A stretch of DNA of 64,000 nucleotides from Octopus vulgaris (lineage: Eukaryota), in contig OX597815.1 in the NCBI GenBank assembly GCA_951406725.2, positions 131,688,001 to 131,752,000 of the forward strand. The letters are read 5' to 3'. Below, piece by piece: positions 2,740 to 56,050 of the stretch. Each line of letters begins with the position of its first letter. Within the stretch, counting starts at the first letter, position 1. A model generated the notes under the pieces. That model made no database searches, had not been told where the DNA came from, and saw only the letters and a list, made by a program, of their open reading frames with translations. The position numbers and the translations under genes are program-made.

Positions 2740-3528
2740 GACAATATAAAGACTCGGCAAGGTCAGCAAGCTTGGAAAATGGGTACCACATGAATTGACT
2801 GAAGCGAACAAACAAGCACGTATCACAGCATGTCAAAATCTGCTCTGGTGAAGCCGAAGATTCGATTGGTTGGAGTCAGTAATCACTATGGATGAAAAGT
2901 GGGTCCTGTACTCCAACGTGAGGCGCAGATGATTCTGGTGTAGCAAAGGTCAACAGCGAACACCTTCGCCAAAAGGACCGTTTGTGCAAAACAAGGTGAT
3001 GATCTTAGTTTGGTGGGATTGCCGTGGTGTGATCAAGCTGGATCTTTTCCCATGTTATACCACCGTTGACAAGGATGTTTACTGCAAACAAATTGACCAT
3101 CTAAAGATCGCGCTGGCCGAAAAACGCACAAATTCGAAGACGATATTTTAGCACCAAGACAACGCGCCAGAACATCGTGCAAAGAAGACATCAGAGAAGC
3201 TGAAGGAAGCAGGCTGGGAGATTATGGTGCACCCACCGTATTCTCCTGACCTTGCCTCTTCCGACTATCACTTATTCTCTACCTTGCAACGCGCAATTGG
3301 CGATATAAAGTTCGAAAATGAAGATGTGAAATCGTTCCTTTGCCACGTTATTGATTCAAAGGCACGCGATTTCTGGATGAAAGGATTCAAAACTTTGCCT
3401 GAAAGATGGCAAAAGGTGATCAATAACGAAAGTGATTACATTTTGGATTGATTGTTCTTTGCTGATCTTTTAATTGTTAATAAAGTGATATGTTAAAAGT
3501 GTCCAAGAACTTTCGTACCAAACTGATA
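2740..3528 (+). mobile_element. Mariner (DD34D) transposon, 5'-truncated, transposase pseudogene
   Basis: Motifs KLGKWVPHELT, ITMDEKWVLY, HQDNAPEH, HPPYSPDLASSDYHLF; 34 residues between 2nd and 3rd D; in-frame stops; mariner-like right end ctttcgtaccaaactgaTA. Confidence 0.95.
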
Positions 3529-8866: not shown

Positions 8867-9826
8867 AAAGACATAGAATTTAGTTAAATTAGAACAGAGG
8901 GACACATTAGTATAATTATACCTAAAATCTCCAAGAAGCTAAGGAGATAAACAAAGAACATGTTGTACCGACAACAGCATAGCCGTAAATAAAATTTTCA
9001 AGAAGACACTGCTGCCACTGATGTTTTGTTTTTTAATCACTAAAATCATGATGAAGTACATATACAATTTAGTAACTTCAATAGAGAAGATTTATAGAAC
9101 ATATGTTATAATTCAAGAAATTAAAAATTGTTTATTTACTTAATTAGCTTGTGTCTTTAATCATTTATACCTAGTATTAACTAAAAGAAAAATGAATGTT
9201 GTAGGGTATGCTATCTACGCACTAATTTTAAACTATGAGGTATATTATACATTTTAAAACTCAAGATCAATAAAGTGATACTTTCTATAATATATTTGAA
9301 ATCTATATTATAAATCTTCATTTAATATTAGTATATGGCTAGCTTGTCCTTTTAGCAAAAATTATCTTTTCAACTAATACTAGGTTTCAGCTCTGATAAT
9401 TGTAAGCTAAATAAATTAACAAATTTTAGCTCATAAATTATTATACATTTTCTAGAAATACTTGCTATTAGAGTTAATAATGTATGAATATTTTATTATT
9501 ATATTATGGTTTTTAATGCTAACTGATCATTTTATAATTGGTGCTATTGTAATTTTTATAGCGGCCTTAAATAAATCTAATCCTTGTACCCCTATTAACT
9601 CATACACAACTTCTATAAGCAATAATAAATCTCTGAACGAGATGTAAACAGTAAGCGCTCGACAAAGTATACTAGCCATCTCAATATGGCTAACCAATAG
9701 GGGTGGGTGTTACTGTAGCTTTTTAGCCACAGGAGATCATCGTCTCCAGCTGGCTTTAGACACAATTACTGTGCCCTTATGATATTTGCAAAGGGAGGTC
9801 ATCCCCTCTCGTAAACCTAAGTGATA

Positions 9827-9871
9827 CGCATGGACTGCACTTTCGAGATTATTGTCTCTTGTCAACACACG
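9827..9871 (-). ncRNA. Type I hammerhead, U3-A8 variant, stem III C15.2 changed to G
   Basis: Minus strand CGTGTG-TTGACAA-GAGA-caataa-TCTC-GAAAG-tgca-GTC-CATGCG. Confidence 0.7.
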
Positions 9872-9904
9872 GTAATCACCGGTTTTCGATGAGGAGATGA
9901 TTAC

Positions 9905-9949
9905 CGTGTGTTGACAAGAGACAATAATCTCGAAACTGCAGTCCATGCG
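9905..9949 (+). ncRNA. Type I hammerhead, U3-A8 variant, apparently intact; predicted cleavage after 9943
   Basis: Stem I CGTGTG/CATGCG (2 GU pairs), core TTGACAA, stem II GAGA/TCTC, GAAAC-TGCA-GTC with palindromic stem III. Confidence 0.85.
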
Positions 9950-10262
9950 TATCACTTAGGTTTACGAGAGGGGATGACCTCCCTTTGCACATATCATAAG
10001 GGCACAGGAATTGTGTCTAAAGCCAACTGGAGACTATGATCTCCTGTGGCTAAAAAGCTACAGTAACACCCACCCTTAGTGGTTAGCCATATTGAGATGG
10101 CTAGTATACTTTACGTTGTCGAGCGCTTACTGTTTACATCTCGTTCAGAGATTTATTATTGCTTTCAGACCGTTTTTCGAAATCAGTGACAATAGTTACT
10201 TGGAAAAAACATTAAATAGATAGTCGCAAACAGGTCTCTTCTCATCGAAAACCAGTGATTAC

Positions 10263-10307
10263 CGTGAGTTGACAAGAGAAAATAATCTCGAAACTGCATT
10301 CCATGCG
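10263..10307 (+). ncRNA. Type I hammerhead, U3-A8 variant, tandem copy with G16.2 changed to U
   Basis: cgtgag-TTGACAA-GAGA-aaataa-TCTC-GAAAC-tgca-TTC-catgcg; 358 nt downstream of the 9905 copy. Confidence 0.7.
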
Positions 10308-12003
10308 TATCACTTAGGTTTACGAAAACTTCTATAAGGTTATACCGGTATCTCCACAACTTAAAATTAGTTCAATTTTATTAACTCAGTATATAGTTGA
10401 CATGTTCTTTGACCTCAGTTGCCCCCCCCCCCCCCCGCCTTATTAAATACCTGTTAATTCCATTTGATCAATTTCAATGGAAACCATATAATATGTTAAT
10501 ATTTTAGATAAGTAATAAGTATATAAATATTAATCTATTAATCTATTTCTTTGCAATTTCCTTTTCCTCCCTCTATTGTGGTAAAAATTTGGTATATACT
10601 CATAATATTCAAAGACGTGGTATCATGTATTTACAATTTTCATTCTTAGTAATCTTCTTGATTACCCTAAAATTTTAACCTTATACAGTATGACGATATT
10701 GTTTGGAATGATCTTTAAAAATACTTGATTTTCTCTTTCTTAATTGGCTCTACTCTCCTGATCTTATTATTTATAAGGACCTTCATATAAATAACTTTTC
10801 TAAACAAGTACCACTAAGAAACTATAAATATCATGTAGGGAGTAATAATAATAACTTCTTAAAACTATAAAATAATCCTAAATTAAAAAAATATTAGTGT
10901 AAAATAGAATTGTTCCATAACTTAAATATTCCTTTACCCGATACCAAACATCAGTCTTTTAGAGATATTAGCTAAATAAGTAAATATAATTTTCAGTCTA
11001 ATATATTTTGAATTATTATACTTTTTTTTTGTAAAAAATCTTCTCTATTGATGTTGACAAGCTACATATACTTTACTATAGTATTAGTAATTAAACCACT
11101 TTATTCCTTTTCTATGGTGCTCTGCGCTTGATTATTTAATTTTATAATTAGTCTTTATTTATTTATAAAAGTATTCTAAGCTTTGTATCTCTATAAATTC
11201 ATACTTAGCTTACATAAGACTATACTGATATATTCCTTACTCATATAAAAAAAAATGCTCAGGTTTAGAAATTTATTAATATATAGTTAGCATGTTCTTT
11301 TACCTCAAAACTCTTTTATTAATACCAGTAAATATCATCTTATACCATCTGATGAGTTAGTATTTAAGTATACAATATGTAGAAATATTAAGCTATTCCT
11401 ATATACTTTCTTTTCCACCCTCTATTGTTGTAAAAGTTTGATATATACTCAAAAGTATTCATAAATTTGTATCCTTATGTTACAATACTCTTCTGAATAA
11501 TCTTTTGAATAACTCTAAACTTTAACTGTATACAATATAGCAACATTGTTTTAAAGTACTTAAGTGTAGTGCTACATGATAAGACTTCCCCTGTTTCATT
11601 ATCAATAGTCTGCTAGTGGGTGACCCCTTAATTATCAGCTAACATCTTGTTTTAAGTTTTCACTTACTAACCCTCATAACATTGCTTCTAATAAATCTTG
11701 ACTTTTATGACTATACCATCTAGAATGTCTGTCTACTACCTCAACTCTGCCCCAAACAGATACTGCACTCTGTTTCTCTCAGCTTTGAATGTACAAGGGA
11801 TTTGATAAAGTAGTCTATAAATTAAAAGTAACCGCTTAAACAAAAAAAATCAGTGGCAAGCAGTGTCTTCTTGAAAATTTTAGTTACGGCTATGCTGTTG
11901 TAGGTACATGTTCTTTATCTAAAATCCCCAATTTCTTGGAGATCTTAGGTATAAATATACTAACGTATCCATATGTTCTAATTTAACTAAATCCTATGTC
12001 TTT

Positions 12004-12887: not shown

Positions 12888-13515
12888 TAGTTTCAGCTTA
12901 GAGCTGTGGCCATGCTGGAGCACCGCTCTTTTCCTGTACTCTTATTATTGAGAGCCTCCTGTAATACATGTCATTTAGTGAATAAGGGAGTTTGATGTTG
13001 CTACCCTCCGTTGCACCTCTTCCCGCGAGGTAGGTTCATCTAGGACTCTCGACAGGAAGAAGTTCAGTTTCGATTTCAAAACACCTACATCCACTTTGTG
13101 TAGGTCCCTCAGGCACTTTGGGAGAATATTAAAAAGTTGTGGGACCCTGAAACCCAGGCTATTGCAGTAACTGCCCCTGAAGCGTGATGGCATTGCTGGG
13201 ATCTTTGGCACTGCAGTGACGGCCTGTTCTAGCATTGGTGTAGCTTTGAATGCCAAAATTTGGTACAATTCCTTCCAGGATCTTCCAGTTGTATATTATT
13301 GCATATCTCGCTCGCCTTCGCTCCAGGGAGTAGAGTCTTAGCTGCTTCAGCCTTTCCCAGTAGCTGAGGTGTTGCAACGAGACGACCGTCTTTGTGAAGC
13401 TTCGTTGGATTGCTTCAAGGTCTGCTGTTAATTTTACACTGTTGGGTGACCATAGCTGACAGTAGTAGCCCAGACAGCTGAGGACCATCATGGTTTCCCA
13501 CTCTCTGGTCCTGGA
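12888..13515 (-). mobile_element. CR1-type LINE 3' fragment
   Basis: YCQLWSP, LYSLERRRARY, PQLFNILPK motifs; close match to 31762-32410; same 3' tail. Confidence 0.92.
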
Positions 13516-13571
13516 TGTACATATATGATGTGTATGTACGTATCCATGTTTGTATGTATCTACACATCGAC

Positions 13572-27424: not shown

Positions 27425-27458
<34 letters not shown>

Positions 27459-27477
27459 TATGTGTATATATATATAT

Positions 27478-28028
27478 GTCAGGTCACTTTCGCGTGCTAC
27501 TGGTAACATGTAACCCAGTACAACATGTTGCATAGTCGGGTCGTCGGCGACTAAACCGGCAACCCCACGAAGCTTGCTTAGTGAAGAGGGTGTTTACTGG
27601 ACACCCTGCGGGATGAAAAACAAAACCCGTCAAAGGGCGGAGGAACTCATGAGAGTCAACGGCCATCCAATAAATGTCTTAAGGCTGTATCATGCGCGGG
27701 GACATAGAAATAATCGGACTGAATACCCGATCGCGCGGTTAAACCATTGGGTGTGAAGGACTCCTAGCCATTGTTAGGGCATCCTTCTAGGAGAACGTAA
27801 CTCAGGTAACTGGGATAACTCCGACATAAAATCTGTGGCTCAGTGGTTACCGATGATGTTGACTTGTTCTTCTTTTCGGATTAAGGCTGCTGTTGCTCAG
27901 TGAGTGGGATTGACTCAGTGCACAGGCTTTCCTCACTTAAAAAAATCTTCTTGCGCAGGCATTGCACGATAACAACATTGATTAATCTTCGTGCAATGGC
28001 CATACCCGATAACGAGGGGGAAGCCACC
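27478..28028 (+). mobile_element. ~550-bp non-coding retroelement, probably an RTE-derived internally deleted element
   Basis: Second near-identical copy at 47316-47870 (-); ctaggagaa(c/g)gtaactc resembles RTE 5'UTRs (recalled, not searched); microsatellite flanks. Confidence 0.7.
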
Positions 28029-29724
28029 ATATATATACATATATTCATACACACACACACACAAATACACACACACACACACACAGACACACACATACAC
28101 ACATATATATATACATACACATATAACTAGTAATGTTTGTCGCCAGTTCTGCATGGCTAAGGCGATAGTAGAAAACACTGGCCCAAGGTGCTACGCACTG
28201 GGATTGAATACGGAACCATGTAGTTGGTAAGCAAGCTATTCCTCAGACGTTCTTACAACTTTGGTCGTCGTAATACTCTGCCTTCATTTGTTTAATAAAA
28301 ATTCCTCCTCCTAATGATTTTGCTTTAATTTCGTGATAAACAATTATGATGCAGAAAATGCCAGCTATCACGTAGAGAATGCATGCTTCCAAATCCTGTT
28401 TTCTGATTAGCTAAAATTGATTAAACTTTAAACCTGAGTAACATTTTTCTGCAATTTTTCTGGGACAAATAAATAATAAAATCAGATTAAAACTCGGAAA
28501 AATTTTCAATATATCAAAATTGAAAATTTTAACATAATTTTTAAATCTCACATTAGAAGACCCTACAAAAGTAGAGAGACATACAGTTATATGAGGTCAC
28601 ACAAACAGTCACAAACACACACATACACACACACACATTTACAAACATACAAACAGTTGATCACGAGTTTAAAATGGTGTATAGTAGACATCTGTACGTA
28701 TGTATGTATGTATGTATGTATGTATGTATGTATGTATGTATGTATGTATGTATGTATGTATGTATGTATGTATGTCATTTTTCAGTTTTATTTCAAGATT
28801 TCTTTCCAATAGAGAAAGAGCGGATCTCTAACTTAGATTCAAGGCTCTTTCATTCAAATCTCAACATCAAGATGAGGGTATTTTTGTATATAAGTATGTA
28901 TGTATATGTGCAGATTTGTATGTTTTGCTTTATGTATGTATAGTCATGCACAGAGTTGTATATATAGACATGCTCATATATATTTAAAGAATAAACTTTT
29001 TTACAGTTCCAGTGATGTAGTCTTGGAAGCCTAATTTCTCAAGATTGGTATTTGGACAGTGTGTTAAATATGCCAATGACCCAATAATTACAGGTATAAA
29101 TTTGAACTTGTAATCTGAATGGAGTAGCTGCATCGGGTTATGTGTGTATATAATATATGTATGTATGTATGTTGTACGTATGCATGTAAGTTGTACGTAT
29201 GTATTTATACATTTATATATACGTACGTGTGCGGGTGTATGTCTTTTCTGAGTGTTTTTATTTTGCGATGGACATCAGAAAAGGCACATACTCCCTCTCT
29301 CCTTAAAGCTACGTATTCATCATTCCCACCTTTCCGTGTGTGTGCGTGTGTGTATTTGCATGTGTGTGCATATGTGTGTAAATGTGCTGTGTCTATGTAT
29401 TTACAAAAGTATGCATGCAGCGTGATGTGTATACGACAGCTGTATTAACGTTACATCGCATTTCTATTCAATATTTGTCTCTTACACAACGCTGTTCCCG
29501 CGTTCCCTGATATGTATCCCCCTCAACCTGCTACTGCGTTTCCTTCCGACTGATACCCTTTGTACCCCTCTCCTTTTCTTATGAAATACCCTCAAACACC
29601 ACCCCTGGCGGGCATATTGTAGATTTTTATTGTAATCCAATTAGTCTATTATTGATCTGAATGCTAGTGTAAAATTATATATATATATCGGAGTAAATGC
29701 GCTTGGCACTGTTTATGTAAAATC

Positions 29725-29876
29725 ACAATTTAGGTTAGTTGAAATATGTTTGTCACATATTTCAAATGCTAAAGGCAAATACACTGCATTTCTCATGGAG
29801 AACTCCACAGTAACTGCTGTGTATTTGCCCTTAGCAATTGAAATATGACAAACATATTTAAACTAACCTAAATTGT
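29725..29876. repeat. ~150-bp imperfect foldback palindrome
   Basis: acaatttaggttagtt...tggag-aa-ctcca...aactaacctaaattgt. Confidence 0.85.
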
Positions 29877-29894
29877 CAATATAAATATTATATG

Positions 29895-29974
<80 letters not shown>

Positions 29975-30177
29975 TACGCTATATGTAAACAAGGACAAGT
30001 TTATTTTTCAAGCGCTTAAATGTACTGTAGAACAAGGAGAAAGATATATTTTTCAACGTGTAAATACTGATAGAACAGCATATATACGATAAAATCCTTA
30101 CAGATCGGTTCTATCAGTATTTGCCAGTTGAAAAATTCTTTCTGCCTGTGCTATATATATATATATATATATATATA

Positions 30178-31761: not shown

Positions 31762-34500
31762 TAGTTTCAGTTCAGAGCTGCGGCCATGCTGATGCACCGC
31801 CGTTTTGTGCTATACTGTTATTGCGAAGAACCTCGTCTAATATGTGGCAGTTGGTGAAGAATGGAGTTTGATATAGCTACTCTCATTTGCACCTCTTGCC
31901 GTGAGGTAGGTTCATCTGGGACTCTCGACAGGAAGATGTCCAGCTTTTATTTAAAAACCGCTACATCTACTTTGTGCAAGTTCCTCAGATTCTTTGGGAG
32001 AATATTAAAAAGCTGTGGGCCCTTGAAACCCAGGCTGTTGCAGAAGCTGGTCCTGAGGCGTGATGGCATTGCTGGGATCTTTGGCACTATGCAGTGTCGT
32101 CCCGTTCTAGCATTGGTGTAGCTTACAATGCCAAAATTTGGCACAATTCCTTCCAGGATCTTCCAGACATATATTACTGCATACCTCTCCTGTCTTCTCT
32201 CCGGGGAGTAGAGTCTTAGCTGTTTCAAACTTTCCCAGTAGCTGAGCTGTTGCAAAGAGACAATCTTCTTTGTGAATCTTCTCTGGTTTGCTTCAAGGTC
32301 CGCTGTTAATTTTACAGTGGTGGGTGACCATAGCTGTGAGCAGTAATCCAGGCGGCTGAGGACGAATGTCCGCCAGCGGACCATCATGGTTTCCTTATCT
32401 CTGGTTCTGAATGTTCTTAGGATCCACCCAGCCAGTCGTCTGCACTTTGTCGCCATCCTGGTAATGTGCACTTGGAAAGAGGTATCATCACTCATGTCGA
32501 TACCCAGGTCCCTCACAGACTTAGGCTCTGGGATTGAAATTCCCTGTGGACCGGTGTATCCTGTAAGTTTAATATTCAGTTTTGGATGCAGGTAGCGCAG
32601 GGCCTGGAATTTTTAAGCATTAAACTGCATATTATTATCCTCAGCCCATCTGTAGATTGGGTCCAACTCATGCTGCAGGTGTGCAACATCGCTGGGGTTG
32701 TGTATTTTCTGCGAGACTTTCGTATCGTCTGCATAGCTGTTGTTTTTGTAAAATCTCAGAAAATAATTAAAAATTCACATTTTTTATCAAATTATTTTGT
32801 TATATTTTTCTATCTATCCGGGCATTTGAGGGCATATCTGAGAGGGCCACTATAAAAAGCAGTGGTCCCTGCGGAACACCGCTCACTATTTGTGTGTTCA
32901 TAGAGGTGGCTCCATTAACCACTACTGCCTGACTCCTATCTTTCAGGAAGTCATGTAACCACACTCCAAGTTTTCCAGCTATGCCGAGGTCACGCAGTTT
33001 GTGACATATCATACCATGATCCACCTTGTCAAAAGCTTTTGCAAAATCAAGGTAGATTACATCCACATTTGATTTGTTGAGTAACTGCCTCAACACCCAG
33101 TCATAATGTTGTAAGAGCTAGGTCAAGCAGCTCCTATCTGGTCGAAAACCATGCTGGGTATCACTCAACAAGTTATTTTCCTCAAGGAATGCGATTAGTT
33201 TCTTTCTGACTATCCGTTCCATGACTTTGCTGATGTGTGAAGTCAGAGAGATAGGCCTATAGTTTTTGGCATCTCTCTACTTCCCCCTTTATGTATTGGG
33301 CATATTATTCCCTCCTTCAGCTTGCTTGGCAGTTTGCCATTCGCTACTAAGCTCTGGAAGAGAATCTTGAGGGGTTTTGCCAGGGCATGCTTACACGCTT
33401 TGTGGAGGATGGCTGGGAAACCATCTGGACCAGCAGCTGAGTTTGTCTCCACTTCATCTATGGCTAGTAGGACATCTTTTTCGCTAATGTCAATACGTTC
33501 TATTGTAACCGCCTCGCTGTTTATAGGTGAAGCGGCAAAAAAGTCCACTGGTTCGTTCACTTGTCTGTGTTCCAAAAGAGTGGTAAAGACATTTTTGAAC
33601 TGGTCATTCAGCATCTCACTGATCTTAGTTGGACTGTCTGTGAGGGAGCCATCTTTTTGGAGGAGGGGTCCTATCTTGTAGTGCACTAAGACTGCTTCTT
33701 TCACGTAATGAAAGAAGGCCTTTGATTTGATTTAATATTTTTTATAACCCAAGCTTCTTTGTCTGCTTTCTCCTTCACATAGGATAGTTGCAGCCTTTTT
33801 TTGATCTCCATCAGTGTTGTTTTTAGGCGGGACGTTTCGCTACTTTTGGGATGTTGGTTGAGTTGATTTGCAGCCTTCGTCCGTCGTCTCATGAGGATCT
33901 TCCTGTCTCTTGGAATATTGCTCCTATTTGTTTTGGCCTTGTGCTCTGGGACATATTTCTGGCATACGGCTTGCACAGAAGACATGAAACATTCTAGTTT
34001 CATATCAATGTCTGGTGTGCAGAGACATTCCGGCCAGTCCTCTCTGAGGATCTCTTTTTGGATCGATTTCCAATCTGCTTTATGGAAGTTCAGATTGGAG
34101 AGATTTCGAGTGCTTCTTTAGGCTGTATGTCTCTGGTTACTTTTGGCCCAAACATAGACAGCTCTATTATTTCTGAAGTGTACTGGGTGGCAATGGGGTT
34201 CTCTGCTGTTTGTGTGGTGGGTTGGGGTTTCAGCTTTGGTTGTTTTGCCTTTTCCTCCTTTTCCCTCATTTTTGTTTTCGGTCCTTCCTTTTTTCTTCTG
34301 CTTTTCTAATTTTTCATTTCTTTGTTGGACCACTGGTACAGGGAGGCTTCCGGCTTCTGCTCCCTTGGCTCCCCTATCCTTCACTACCTGGTCGTTCACC
34401 GGGGTAGGTGATCCATTTTCCTGAGGAACCCCTGGATCACAGAGACTTCTGGCTTCCTTCTCTTTTTCGTCCCCTACATCCTCATCAGCCTTGCCACAAT
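31762..34500 (-). mobile_element. CR1-type LINE, ORF2 reverse transcriptase pseudogene plus a probable 5'/ORF1 remnant (34140-34500)
   Basis: SAAGPDG, DVIYLDFAKAFDKVDH, SGVPQG, YADD, RDLGI, RLDYCSQLWSP; frameshifts and stops. Confidence 0.95.
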
Positions 34501-42263: not shown

Positions 42264-42534
42264 TGAACGAGATGTAAACAGTAACTGCTCGACAACGTAG
42301 AAACTGCAGTCCGTGCGTATCACTTAGGTTTACGAGAGAGGGATGACTTCCCTTTGCAAATACCATAAGAGCACAGAAAGTGTGCCTAAAGCCAGCTGGA
42401 GACGATGATCTCCTGGGGCTAAAAGCTACAGTAACACCCACCCTTAGTGGTTAGCCATATTGAGATGGCTAGTATACTTTACGTTGTCGAGCAGTTACTG
42501 TTTACATCTCATTCAGAGATTTATTATTGCTTAT
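42264..42534 (+). mobile_element. Second locus of the 9.6-kb HHR element family, truncated inside the HHR, with a 36-bp inverted leader
   Basis: 42300-42534 matches 9932-10163; 42264-42299 is the reverse complement of its own 3' part. Confidence 0.9.
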
Positions 42535-42550
42535 AATAATATAATATTAC

Positions 42551-42941: not shown

Positions 42942-43029
42942 CATACACATATAGAACGATGGATTGATAACAATATATATATATATGCAAGCAGACACAT
43001 ACACACACACACACATATAAAACATATAT

Positions 43030-43395
43030 GTTTCGAGCAAAGATTGGTCCAGGCTATATCTAACTTAATAGCACCACCTGAGAAGACTAGCTAAATCCCT
43101 TTTAAGTCTCGTTTTGTTGTATCATGATCCATTCGAGTAGGGAGTGAGTTGTATCCAGGTATAGGTTGCTTATCTAGTATTCGTTGAAGATATTTGTCCA
43201 GATTCCATATAAAGGTAATGGGATCCTTTTCCTCTTTGATCTGTTTCGGTACAATGTTAAATGGAGCAGTGTCTGTTGAAGAAAAGAAGTGCTGCAGTGC
43301 ATTTATGTGTTATGATCCTGAATTGGGTAGGAGACGTATGGCCCGTGGTCCTAGCCTTGAATGAATTCTGAAGCTAATGTTGAGGTCGTTTGGGC
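43030..43395 (-). mobile_element. 3' fragment of a second CR1/L2-type LINE subfamily
   Basis: Manual translation PNDLNISFRIHSRLGPRAIR...FNIVPKQIKEEKDPITFIWNLDKYLQRILDKQPIPGY parallels the C-terminus of the 32-kb LINE. Confidence 0.65.
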
Positions 43396-43399
43396 AAAA

Positions 43400-43495
43400 G
43401 GCGGCGAGCTGGCAGAAACGTTAGCACGCCGGGCAGAAATGCTTTGTGGTATTTCGTCTGCCGTTACGTTGTGAGTTCAAATTCCGCCGACTTTT
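43400..43495 (+). mobile_element. SINE family B, 5' fragment
   Basis: ggcggcgagctggcagaaacgttagcacgccggg. Confidence 0.85.
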
Positions 43496-45029
43496 GTCAC
43501 ACATCACTGCGTATGCTTTGAGGAAGCACGAACAGATTATGATATAGTGAAGGAGCTCAGAGTATATTTTAAAATAAGTGATATAAAACATCATTTGTGA
43601 ATATAAGCCGATTTATTTCTGACTGGAAGCTTATATTTTCTTAAAAAACAAAATCTGTCAAATCCAGTAAAAAATTCATCATGAAATGGAACAATGTAGT
43701 TAATGTATGGGTCAGTGTAAAGTGCAATCATAATACGCATGTTGTTCTGCGATTATCATTAATACTATTCTGTCTGGATCTATATTATGTTTCAGTTTCT
43801 CAGTTCAAATCTATCACAAAATTATCCAGACATAGTGACGTCGTTTATATATAAACGGTGTCCATAGCTGAGTTTACATTGGCGATTATAGTTTTGTCAC
43901 TTAGCACAAGCCGATTGCATGCTTGCATAAAACAGAAGAAATTCTCCTGATGTTCCTCTATTTCAAAATGGATGAAGACCCTAAGAAACTTTTAATGGCA
44001 TAACTTGTGGTTGCTGTTGAAATAGGAGCGAAATTGGACTCTAATAGAAGCCATTGTCTTATCAAAAAGGTAATATAGATAGGAAGATGAATTGCGTTAT
44101 TTACAAAAAGATGGATAGGTTAAGTCAGAAATGCCTTTGATAATTAATATGTTGCAACCCAGTTGCCTTGGAGCTCAACTACAACAACCGTAATGAAAGA
44201 AACGACTCAATATATCAATACATTTCTCGTAAGGATGAACAAAAACCTATAGGAAGATGTGTTTATTATAAATCGCAGTTTTTTTGTGAATGTTTGTTTA
44301 AGTGTTGATTTCTAACTCCAGAAAAATATAGACGGTGCTCCAGTATGACCGCATCCAATGAGCGAACAACTAAAATAATCTAATAGTTGAAATGAATATT
44401 AAATTCAACGTGGAACTGAAATTACTTCATTTGCTTCTGTTGATAACTGCGATAGCTTTTATAATTATGCGCTCTCTATATACAAAGACTACTTAAAAAA
44501 TTACCTATTGGATGTGTACAAGAATTTGATCGATTATTGAAGCATTTCCATAATTACAACTATATTTATTGCATTGTTCCCAATTTGAAAGAATTGATTA
44601 AAAATGGTTCCAAACTTTTATATATTCATATATATTTTATTGACCAATAAGTGCCGTGGCATTTCTATAAGTTTAGACAATTAAATTAATAAACAGGTAA
44701 ATTGCTCAAACGTTACCTCACCGGGGATTAAAATTATATTACATAGAAAATTAAATTGCTATTATAGCAAAACATAAAATAAATCGACGGAATACGTAGC
44801 GAAGTTGAAATGGTTCAGTAGGCGACTCATTAGTCAGTCCAACTTACGTGTCGTAGTTTCGAATATGGTATCAAACTTTCGAGCTATGAAGAACATAAAT
44901 TACCAATAAAATTCATGGTGATTCTTCATAGAGCAAAGATACGAGATTTGTTTGGAACGATTAACTTCTGTTGAGAGGTACCGAATACAAAGAGTAGAAT
45001 TCGTTTGCTTTACGCATATAAGCATATGT

Positions 45030-45465
45030 ATGTCTGCGTGGCTAAAAAGCGCGCAGTGCAACCACGTAATTCCGAGTTCGGTATCACTGCTTGGAAAGGT
45101 GAGTTCTACTCTAGCGTTGGGGCGATGGATATTTTGTGAGTGTATTCAAAAGAATGAAAGTTTTTGGAAACCTCTCCCTCTCCCCTTCTTTTTCTGTAAA
45201 TATTTATATGTGTGTGTGTGTGTTTGCGTTTGTGTGTGTGTTTTTACGTATGTATGATTGCGTGGGTATTTCACCATCTGCTGCTTCACAACCGTTGTTA
45301 GCGTGTTTGCATCCCCATCATAATACAGGGGATCTGTAAAAAAGCCGATACAAAAATATCAAATTGAAAAATTAATAAATGCCGAGTTCGATTTGATCAG
45401 TCGATCACTTCGAGATGGTGACATAGCATAGTTGTTATCCAGTGACAGACACAAGTGAAAGCAGC
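45030..45465 (+). mobile_element. Highly degenerate SINE family A copy
   Basis: Residual head (aaccacgtaattccgagttcg), TG tract and tail. Confidence 0.55.
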
Positions 45466-45922
45466 AAGGGGGAAATAATATCTAAACCCAAACCACTATC
45501 ATTATAAGCAATAAATACATCCCTGCTACAGGTTGGTATATATTGCATATTGCTAGAAAGCTCCACGCGAATGATTGATATAACCATATAATCCCTGGGT
45601 TATAAAGCATACCATTGAAGTTAGCTTTGAAGAAAACACGGCGCATTGGTGAGAAAGCTTTTTGAAGCACATAACAGTACGAATCCTCATATGACAAAGG
45701 AAAACCATAAATCAATTAACAATGAAAGCGAACTAAACGCTCCTTAATGTTATTGTGCTGTGGGTAGTAAAGGATTTGCGCTACACTCTAACTCATAATA
45801 ACTTCATATTATACTTGTACAAAGATAAATTATTTGGGCATGCACTCAATGTATCATTGGAGAGGAAACACATAATTTAATTACTGCTGAAGTTTAGTAC
45901 ATTGCTCTAACCACAATTATAT

Positions 45923-45976
<54 letters not shown>

Positions 45977-46093
45977 AATATAAGAGAGTGTTCACTATAT
46001 TGATCACTCTAGCACTAGTTAATCCAAGAGGTTTCAACCACGAAAAATACATGTTTCCCATGAAAGCCGGTACGACTGTTAGTTCACACGGAC

Positions 46094-46171
46094 CTTGGGA
46101 CAATTGTTTCGCTATTAATGAATTAAATGTAATATTACTTACAGTAATCCATTTGTAGCTCTTCAGCCAAG
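46094..46171 (-). ncRNA. Canonical type I hammerhead ribozyme, intact
   Basis: Minus strand CTTGG-CTGAAGA-GCTA...TAGC-GAAAC-AATT-GTC-CCAAG. Confidence 0.9.
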
Positions 46172-46187
46172 GCTATCTTATCGTTGC

Positions 46188-46262
46188 CTTGGCTGAAGAG
46201 CTACAAATATTATGTAAGTAATATTACATTTAATTCATTAATAGCGAAACAATTGTCCCAAG
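46188..46262 (+). ncRNA. Canonical type I hammerhead ribozyme, intact; predicted cleavage after C46257
   Basis: Stem I CTTGG/CCAAG, core CTGAAGA, stem II GCTA/TAGC, GAAAC-AATT-GTC. Confidence 0.92.
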
Positions 46263-46538
46263 ATAATCTGTATTTTTGTTATTTTTTATTTGCCCTGTCC
46301 GTGTGAACTAACAGTCGTACCGGCTTTCATGGGAAACATGTATTTTTCGTGGTTGAAACCTCTTGGATTAACTAGTGCTAGAGTGATCAATATAGTGAAC
46401 ACTCTCTTATATTTATTTTGAAAATATTATAATATGTTATAAAATATTATAATAATCCAGGTTTCTCGTAGCACTAGGCCACTTGGTGTGGAATAAATAT
46501 ACTATTAAATTAGTATCTAATTCTCTCACCCTTATTAA

Positions 46539-46589
<51 letters not shown>

Positions 46590-46748
46590 AAGTTGGTTTG
46601 TGAAAGCACGTGGTTGAATATATATAAAATAGTAAACAGTGAAAAAACTACAGAAGGCTTGTTTTAAAAGGTTAAAAAATATATATTTGAGTCAATATGT
46701 CTGAAGAATCTTATAAATTTTGTTTCTTACAATGACATAGTTTAGAAG

Positions 46749-46782
46749 AAATGACGGGTTTCGCGTTCAGCTTTTCAAATTT
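46749..46782 (-). ncRNA. Minimal type I hammerhead, U3-A8 variant, mirror copy
   Basis: Minus strand AAAT-TTGAAAA-GC-tgaac-GC-GAAA-CCCG-TC-ATTT. Confidence 0.65.
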
Positions 46783-46810
46783 GAAAAGCTGAACGCGAAA
46801 CCGGTCATTT
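46777..46810 (+). ncRNA. Minimal (34-nt) type I hammerhead, U3-A8 variant; predicted cleavage after 46806
   Basis: AAAT-TTGAAAA-GC-tgaac-GC-GAAA-CCGG-TC-ATTT. Confidence 0.8.
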
Positions 46811-46839
46811 CTTCTAAACTATATCATTGTAAGAAAGTA

Positions 46840-49240
<2,401 letters not shown>

Positions 49241-50551: not shown

Positions 50552-50658
50552 TATATGTATGTGTAATGCGTGTGTATATGTATGTGTAGTGCGTGTGTAT
50601 ATGTATGTGTAGTGCGTGTGTATATATGTTTTGTTATCTCTTTCCTCTCTCTCTCTGT

Positions 50659-50715
<57 letters not shown>

Positions 50716-50806
50716 GAGAAAGAGAGGAAAGAGATAACAAAACATATATACACACGCACTACACATACATATACACACGCACTACACATACATATACACA
50801 CGCATT

Positions 50807-50819
<13 letters not shown>
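50552..50819. repeat. Near-perfect inverted repeat centred on a (TA)n tract, arms containing a 22-bp minisatellite
   Basis: ttttgttatctctttcctctc versus gagaggaaagagataacaaaa. Confidence 0.9.
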
Positions 50820-54932: not shown

Positions 54933-56050
54933 ACTCAGACATGGCAAAAGTAAATAGATACGCCGTTAAACATCATTTTATGTTTATTCTAACTTGTATA
55001 TGCATATATTGTTTTTATTAAGTGATATTTTTATGTTTCATGCTCTATGCGACTATTTAATCATGTCATGTCCAAAAGAATTCTTAGAACTGTCTGTATT
55101 TCAAAGCTGCCGTAGTTCTGAGGGTGGACATATGTTAAAATCCCTGAAAACCTCAGAGTCCCACTTTCTTCAGTTACCAAAGTGATTATGCAATTCACAA
55201 GAGAAAGGAAGGATTACGCATCATCTCGCCCAGATGAAACAGGGCCATCTCACAGGATCCTTCCCTTTGTTAAGAGATGTGTGGAGGACAATCCTCGTTG
55301 CAAGGCCTCTGGTAAAACAGAATAAGTTAATGTCAATTCCAGAATAGCAGTCAATTATCTCCACAAACTTGGTTACTATGGCAGAGCAGCAAGAATAAAG
55401 CCACTGATGAGTCTAGATTTGCTGTATTTCCTGACAGTGGTCTAGTGTAGGTCTGGAGACCTTGTGATCAAGAATTTGATGTGAAAAGATTGCAGCCAAT
55501 AATGAAACATGGCAGCTATTCTGTGATGGTCTGAGGAGCAATTTAGAGCAATGGTTGATCAAAGCTGGTGGAGTGTGAGGGCAACACAAACTCCGATAAA
55601 TATATGTCCATATTGCAGAAAGAACTCCTTCCAATCTTCTCCAGTGGTGATATGTTTAAAGAAGACTCTTTATTTATGGGAGATGGGGTTCCTTATCACA
55701 CGGCTAAAACGACCCAAGAATTGTTGGATGAGAATGGCATTAAAAAGCTTTCATGGTCAATCCAGTCACCAGATCTGAACCCTATTGAACACTTTGGTGA
55801 CATAATGGACAGGACATTTCATAAAAAGAACAAGAAAACATCTTCATAGAGCTTTGGAGATTACTGCATGAAATTTGACAATAAATTCCGCAAGAGAATA
55901 TTCGTCATCTCATTAGTAACATGACTATTAGGGTCATTGCATTGAACAATGCATAGGGTATGTGTACTAAATATTAAATGTTCACATTATTACAATTAAT
56001 AAATAATCTGACTATAAAAATTCAGATTTAGATATTTTTTAATGATTATA
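54933..56050 (+). mobile_element. Tc1-like (DD34E) transposon, decayed
   Basis: LHKLGYYGRAARIKPL, DESRF, FMGDGVPYHTAK...QSPDLNPIEH with 34 residues between D and E; stops and deletions. Confidence 0.9.

Follow-up and report, generated by a model that had tools for sequence, protein, structure and literature searches.

In the current study, we followed up a short palindrome in a 64,000-nucleotide stretch of the Octopus vulgaris genome (contig OX597815.1, positions 131,688,001 to 131,752,000; hereafter the window, whose numbering we use throughout) and found that it is the tip of a larger, lopsided insertion of 251 bp. This insertion is very probably a dead stump of a Penelope-like retroelement (PLE), or of a non-autonomous derivative of one, in which hammerhead-bearing pseudo-LTR (pLTR) ends stand head to head. 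The palindrome itself is real and of a known kind, namely, a head-to-head joint of two short PLE ends; inverted, overlapping pLTR copies with palindromic junctions are already described in the published accounts of Arkhipova et al. (2013; PMC3846280) and Craig et al. (2021; PMC8557442).

The palindrome occupies positions 46723 to 46836 and consists of two 57-bp arms with no spacer, the axis falling between 46779 and 46780. The two arms match at 55 of 57 pairs (the mismatches are 46736/46823 and 46756/46803), pairing outside these limits is at background level, and the score of 49 compares with a best value of 11 in 30 dinucleotide-shuffled windows; as RNA, the segment is predicted to fold at −82.9 kcal/mol (z score of −21.5). 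The spacerless 114-bp palindrome reported in the first-pass annotation of this DNA is therefore confirmed, and its coordinates are correct for the palindrome, although the element extends about 137 nt farther to the left than they indicate. At the center lies the self-complementary hexamer AAATTT (46777 to 46782), an overlap or microhomology common to both copies. The same annotation placed the axis in stem I of a hammerhead, which holds for AAAT but not for the last two T residues of the hexamer, which are U3 and U4. On the reading favored below, the axis falls in stem I because AAAT together with U3 and U4 happens to form the first palindromic hexamer from the element's 5′ terminus, and not because of any ribozyme action.

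On each strand, descriptor and sequence identify a type I hammerhead motif of the minimal kind, with a U3-A8 core. The plus-strand motif (46777 to 46810) has a stem I of 4 bp (AAAT/ATTT), all of them A-U, followed by the core TTGAAAA, a 2-bp stem II with G10.1-C11.1, GAAA, a palindromic stem III (ACCGGT), and a GTC site that ends at 46806. The minus-strand motif (46782 to 46749) is the same apart from a point change that removes the palindrome from stem III (ACCCGT), and the calculated self-duplex energy of stem III is −8.3 kcal/mol for the plus motif versus −0.3 kcal/mol for the minus motif. The descriptor found four matches in the window, these two and a further pair at 46166 and 46193, and none in 100 shuffled windows, which bears out the earlier claim of U3-A8 minimal motifs on both strands at the level of sequence. 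A looser descriptor that allows G-U pairs in stem I adds a core at 9911, and Rfam at its gathering threshold returned no matches in the window.

The larger part of the insertion is a 197-nt copy of a high-copy, hammerhead-bearing repeat (46586 to 46782, minus strand), identified by contig depth, which we read as a 5′-truncated PLE pLTR with a tail. Its minus strand continues past 46723 to 46586, where it adjoins a (TA)n tract (46544 to 46585) that is either the target or derived from it. The last ca. 32 nt (46586 to 46617, minus strand), which are AC rich on the sense strand, correspond by their size and by the loose contig ends described below to the optional extension known in PLEs as the tail; the AC-rich end points lie 150 to 190 nt beyond the hammerhead core. 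The second copy is short, inverted, and only 60 nt long (46777 to 46836, plus strand); it has the same 5′ end as the long copy, and its 3′ side breaks off 30 nt beyond the GTC site. The long copy also contains a candidate 83-nt GT-AG intron (46648 to 46730, minus strand) with a GTAAG donor and a pyrimidine-rich acceptor, and the predicted removal of 46730 to 46648 would leave a frame that starts at ATG and stays open over 23 codons as far as the tail end, the frame being open with one of the two acceptors tried. Schostak et al. (2008; PMC2377424) reported that Penelope has its start site within the pLTR and that an intron of 75 bp follows 46 bp farther on. Among 12 of 32 rows, the indels of other copies between 46590 and 46730 (at 46661, 46679, and 46722) all fall within the candidate intron, as does a subfamily branch after 46684.

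Contigs from 4 of 24 public sequencing runs (X1, X3, X7, and X8) aligned to positions 46590 to 47280 at 80% likeness. The aligned stretch begins inside the tail, which places the left junction and the empty site outside its reach; in X3, parts of the unique flank are without cover; and the counts of contig ends and joints given here refer to the rows listed. Summed contig depth in X1 was 35,000 to 785,000 over 46590 to 46829 compared with 46.5 on the single-copy flank, and the profiles of X3, X7, and X8 had the same shape. The segment from 46590 to 46829 is thus a very abundant repeat, thousands-fold above single-copy depth, a summed depth not being a copy number. Contigs extended to 46590 to 46595 in all four runs. 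Loose ends with (AT)n directly before 46618 were carried by at least 23 contigs in X1, at least 20 in X7, and at least 11 in X8 (none among the rows listed for X3), while other contigs passed 46618 and reached the end of the aligned stretch. These two 3′ end points, 32 nt apart, show that the tail is optional.

At the other end of the insertion, the right arm was joined to the flank in single-copy contigs of X1 (46799 to 47280, with one other letter) and X7 (46793 to 47280, with two other letters); these runs come from two studies, and X1 may be the source of the window itself. A contig bridging the palindrome center was absent among those listed for the four runs. The center was crossed at other positions by 4 of the 13 listed joints (46696-46777, 46714-46793, 46743-46786, and 46747-46782), each represented by one contig with a short side of 21 to 26 letters and each flagged as weak, and these may be other loci or deleted alleles. 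One side of each of the four always lies between 4 nt before and 12 nt after the start of the core. The sequence TAAG was found upstream of 46777 in one joint (X3) and in one loose-end consensus (X1; 10 contigs, agreement of 0.65). It would extend stem I of the family to 7 bp, and by eye the consensus possibly pairs further with the 3′ strand; stem I is probably longer in the repeat family than the 4 bp present at this locus. The loose ends at 46777 are no proof that the family starts there and are uninformative on that point, because the window itself turns at this position. We also considered whether the end of the right arm, 46836, is a usual boundary of the family, and rejected this, since the depth step between the arm and the next bin (summed depths of 104,761/103,824 in X1, 153,029/125,161 in X3, 17,422/19,535 in X7, and 5,904/5,206 in X8) is inconsistent across the four runs.

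To the right of the insertion (46837 to 47280, plus strand) lies an old, broken remnant of a LINE-type reverse transcriptase that is 64% alike to a paralogue at 31870 to 33546 (minus strand), a piece of which (32803 to 33117) matches Pfam RVT_1 with an E value of 4.6e-06, below the curated cutoff. Insertion of the LINE into the arm was rejected, as the decay of the LINE (64% likeness to the paralogue) greatly exceeds that of the arms (96%). No target-site duplication was found at the insertion, the best left-flank match to the right junction being equalled by 38% of 500 random 800-bp pieces, and a look-alike at 46507 to 46539 was rejected as chance. The upstream part of the LINE was not found to the left of the cluster in 43000 to 45920 or 46420 to 46600, where scores were lower than the shuffle maxima, and the right end is without (TA)n. 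Decayed copies of LINE-type reverse transcriptases are present at 46837 to 49200, 31870 to 34100 (minus strand), and 12990 to 13520 (minus strand), and the remnant beside the palindrome is itself broken by a 620-bp repeat (47299 to 47922, 90% alike to 27428 to 28045) and by (TA)n. The window as a whole is AT rich (GC content of 0.22 to 0.44 per 2 kb), with many microsatellites and decayed repeats, and a tRNA scan of it returned nothing. Other inverted or mobile sequences in it include a 268-bp near-perfect inverted repeat, microsatellite-like and centered on (TA)n (50552 to 50819); two imperfect inverted repeats with spacers of 31 to 34 nt, in which no hammerhead core was found (29714 to 29887 and 30048 to 30136) and which are perhaps small DNA-transposon derivatives; and broken DNA transposons with Pfam Transposase_1 and DDE_3 matches (2933 to 3448 and 55559 to 55846).

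Membership in the endonuclease-bearing (EN+) PLEs is likely, judging from the non-coding anatomy, which presents four PLE marks: a minimal type I hammerhead, an optional tail, a head-to-head inverted copy, and a dispersed repeat with AT-rich or (TA)n targets. The inverted copy is, however, cut at its 3′ side, unlike the usual 5′-truncated one, and the target-site duplication, which is optional in PLEs, is missing at this locus. The suggestion of PLE-type integration made in the first-pass annotation is supported by the inverted pLTR, the overlap, the tail, and the TA target. A Pfam search of the 120 longest frames (of 216 window frames that passed the filter) returned no PLE reverse transcriptase or GIY-YIG domain, the two domains of the ORF that defines this group, and further Pfam scans of 12 and 6 frames returned no PLE domains. 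Pattern scans yielded no family members in viral contigs (three scans) or in prokaryote genomes (one scan); 24 prokaryote pattern matches were rejected as chance, the best element match being 21 to 30 nt among the top 12 rows. In metagenomes, one pattern scan found no match and another found one (L001), which was rejected because it lies on a bacterial-looking contig with only 21-mer matches.

Three further inverted junctions are present in the window, and they belong to two other hammerhead families. The nearest is a head-to-head pair of C3-G8 hammerheads with a long stem II (cores at 46166, minus strand, and 46193, plus strand; region 45974 to 46418). The assignment of the palindrome to a different family from this upstream pair is supported, although the geometry that the two were said to share is similar (head to head) rather than the same, the upstream pair having a 12-nt spacer. 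One copy of that pair begins 7 nt before the core, and both arms share the 3′ end; the arms are not identical copies, because in the plus copy stem I is followed directly by 34 extra T-rich nucleotides and the loop of stem II differs. The other family is a second U3-A8 family, with cores at 9865 and 9911 separated by a 19-nt spacer and with copies that start 13 and ca. 32 nt before the core. In this family, the 32-nt stretch leading up to the core is predicted to form a duplex with the first 33 nt downstream of the cut site (−30.7 kcal/mol), and the longer copy begins at the foot of this 32-nt extended stem I. A third copy has its core at 10269 and is 3′ cut, and the segment from 9608 to 10338 contains all three copies (inverted, direct, and direct 3′ cut) inside a 12-bp target duplication (9608 to 9619 and 10327 to 10338). 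Copies cut at the 3′ side end 24 to 30 nt past the cut site in two families (10236 to 10326 and 46777 to 46836), which are two cases only, and contig depth for the 46777-46836 family is without a common end at that distance. Lastly, at 42264 to 42535, a copy of this second U3-A8 family begins inside the core at GAAA (42300), and before it stands a 36-nt segment of its own 3′ end in inverted orientation. This layout is classically two-ended and runs counter to the idea of junctions at the 5′ edge of the ribozyme, a position that the first-pass annotation had proposed and that holds for three of the four junctions in the window. These three lie 4 to 13 nt before the core, and none of the four lies at the cut site. 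At each of the three junctions outside the 46723-46836 palindrome, both arms end at the family 3′ end.

How might the head-to-head junction have arisen? We propose, as the most likely course, a PLE insertion in which two copies became joined at AAATTT, followed by later loss on the right, a route that, taken as a whole, we hold to be evenly poised between right and wrong. The element endonuclease would first cut AT-rich DNA, and reverse transcription would then start inside the RNA at the AC-rich tail; both steps are published for PAc, the Poseidon element of Anolis carolinensis (Frangieh et al. 2024; PMC11167929), and the tail is seen here. Some 200 nt of RNA would next be copied through the hammerhead, ending just upstream of it at the end point that we observe, presumably because the template RNA or its stem I ends there. 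The template was apparently uncleaved, since 27 nt separate the axis from the GTC cut site downstream of it. A second copy would be primed from the other target end and the new 3′ ends joined via AAATTT, either at insertion or afterwards, if two AAATTT sequences were at first separated by a short spacer that was then lost, and finally the outer right copy and any target duplication would be lost. Such a loss at the right end fits the missing target duplication, the missing (TA)n, and the missing upstream LINE, and the intact 3′ ends of the arms at the three other junctions are a prediction of two-ended priming. The four weak joints that cross the center at other positions also count in its favor. 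Against this route, plain two-ended priming would not produce a 3′-cut right arm, and because the arm does not end at a common boundary of the family, a further deletion has to be assumed; the center, besides, is unbridged among the contigs listed.

The chief alternative, and a close one, which we regard as possible but less likely, is fold-back or template switching where the RNA ends on its 5′ side. A single cDNA would extend to the 5′ hammerhead edge, the enzyme would turn onto this product and copy 57 nt of it, and the new strand would then be linked to the opposite end of the target. This would give, in one step, an inverted arm with the same 5′ end and a cut 3′ side, as observed, and it accords with contig depth, which places the end of the arm away from any family boundary. 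Self-priming has been proposed in print (PMC3846280), and fold-back priming or template switching was also the suggestion of the first-pass annotation, which has that precedent but is not singled out by the data, as annealing or deletion at AAATTT gives the same product. A spacerless product would, however, need a primer of 1 bp with a 4-nt loop or of 2 bp with a loop of 2 nt. At the right end there is no target duplication that would identify it as an original junction, and the arms of the three other inverted junctions reach the family 3′ end.

A non-LTR retrozyme, that is, a tandem hammerhead repeat spread via circular RNA with unit ends set by ribozyme cleavage, would likewise be short, non-coding, present in high copy number, and equipped with a type I hammerhead. 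Such elements are reported to derive from PLE pLTRs (bioRxiv 10.64898/2026.07.22.740005), and the other U3-A8 family does have direct-orientation cores 358 nt apart (9911 and 10269). We nevertheless find this reading improbable: the locus has no tandem unit, the unit is not repeated in direct orientation anywhere in the window, the GTC site coincides with neither end, and the optional tail and head-to-head overlap are marks of PLEs. Less probable still is an assembly or library fold-back artifact, for which one could cite the unbridged center among the contigs listed and the report that inverted PLE structures trouble assemblies (PMC8557442). The arms differ at two places and only one continues into the family, a read fold-back would have mirrored the flanks too, and the right arm is joined to unique flank in the two studies, although the window may itself derive from one of them (X1).

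As for ribozyme activity, a transcript across the locus is predicted to form a single long hairpin (−82.9 kcal/mol) rather than a ribozyme, and the isolated 34-mer gives no hammerhead fold in ViennaRNA (z score of +0.98). A working ribozyme is therefore unlikely at this locus. The two motifs lie on opposite strands, which makes dimerization in cis impossible, and the minus motif has lost its stem III palindrome; with the modeled hairpin, this speaks against the earlier description of ribozymes on both strands where function is meant. A selected two-way ribozyme that cuts transcripts of both strands would account for the core nucleotides being kept on both, but it is very improbable, given the hairpin, a stem I of only 4 A-U pairs, the missing minus-strand palindrome, swapped-dimer models at only −2.5 (plus) and +5.0 (minus) kcal/mol, and the very slight cleavage reported for hammerheads of the minimal PLE type (Cervera and De la Pena 2014; PMC4209133).

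Returning to insertion with joining at AAATTT, one speculative extension concerns the hammerhead itself. It may be that in PLE families generally the point where short copies stop and turn around is the 5′ base of stem I and not the cut site, such that a folded, uncleaved hammerhead (or a transcript start just before it) acts as a boundary at which the reverse transcriptase stops or turns. We offer this tentatively and incline somewhat against it. In its favor, the short copies of three unrelated families begin at distances of 4, 7, and 13 nt ahead of the core, and the longer copy at 9.6 to 10.3 kb begins at the foot of stem I. On the other side, one of the four junctions lies inside the core (42300), and the pairs were found by their hammerhead, which biases the sample toward junctions that keep it. 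If the idea is right, the hammerhead would have a function distinct from self-cleavage, namely, that of delimiting cDNA synthesis by its structure. By itself, the locus is one more dead PLE stump in a repeat-rich genome; it is also a data point on how PLEs make head-to-head copies and on the purpose of hammerheads that are barely active. Should junctions cluster at the foot of stem I genome wide, a noncatalytic role could be tested directly by counting, and the position at which the transposing RNA begins on its 5′ side would be known. We found no paper in the open literature that counts inversion axes relative to the hammerhead, although supplementary alignments may already show such junctions.

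Several published systems bear comparison with the octopus locus. The minimal hammerheads that Cervera and De la Pena described in metazoan PLE repeats include a U3-A8 variant with a palindromic stem III and G10.1-C11.1, act as dimers with low activity, and occur as opposite-strand pairs 100 to 700 bp apart (PMC4209133). The type I fold, the U3-A8 core, G10.1-C11.1, a short stem I, and a small palindromic stem III are shared with the locus described here, as are opposite-strand pairs and a preponderance of solitary, truncated copies. Stem II is 2 bp here, compared with 7 to 8 bp in the Schistosoma families of that paper; the extra base between positions 9 and 10.1 is lacking; and the two motifs overlap instead of standing 100 to 700 bp apart. 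Non-LTR retrozymes, as described in the preprint cited above, share the short non-coding repeat with a type I hammerhead, but they are tandem units with a hammerhead in each, whereas the present locus is inverted. In the Adineta vaga elements Pen2a_Av, Pen2_Av, and Pen3a_Av (PMC3846280), the inverted pLTR overlaps the direct one head to head by 15 bp, compared with 6 bp here, and an optional 31-bp tail is present on one copy, compared with ca. 32 nt here; the latter also fits the 30- to 40-bp tail in the general PLE scheme of Craig et al., which includes an inverted copy, palindromic junctions, and (TA)n targets (PMC8557442). Arkhipova et al. reported palindromes of 18 and 38 bp at pLTR 5′ ends as well as copies without a target duplication, and they proposed self-priming as the cause; the sections of their text on which we draw do not discuss where the junctions lie relative to the hammerhead. 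The palindrome at the 5′ end, the repeat of ca. 200 bp, and the AT-rich target are common to the rotifer and octopus elements, although here no ORF is left, the short arm is 3′ cut at 60 nt, and there is no target duplication. A further parallel is PAc, for which Frangieh et al. reported that AT-rich DNA is cut on both strands, that reverse transcription starts internally in AC-rich sequence and so defines the tail, that hammerhead cleavage is not needed, and that no RNA reads end at the cut site (PMC11167929). The PAc ORF starts at stem II, whereas our element is known from non-coding sequence, and the PAc mechanism was tested in vitro, whereas ours is inferred. The two nevertheless have in common a pair of 3′ end points in AC-rich sequence that define the tail, an AT-rich target, and a template that was apparently uncleaved.
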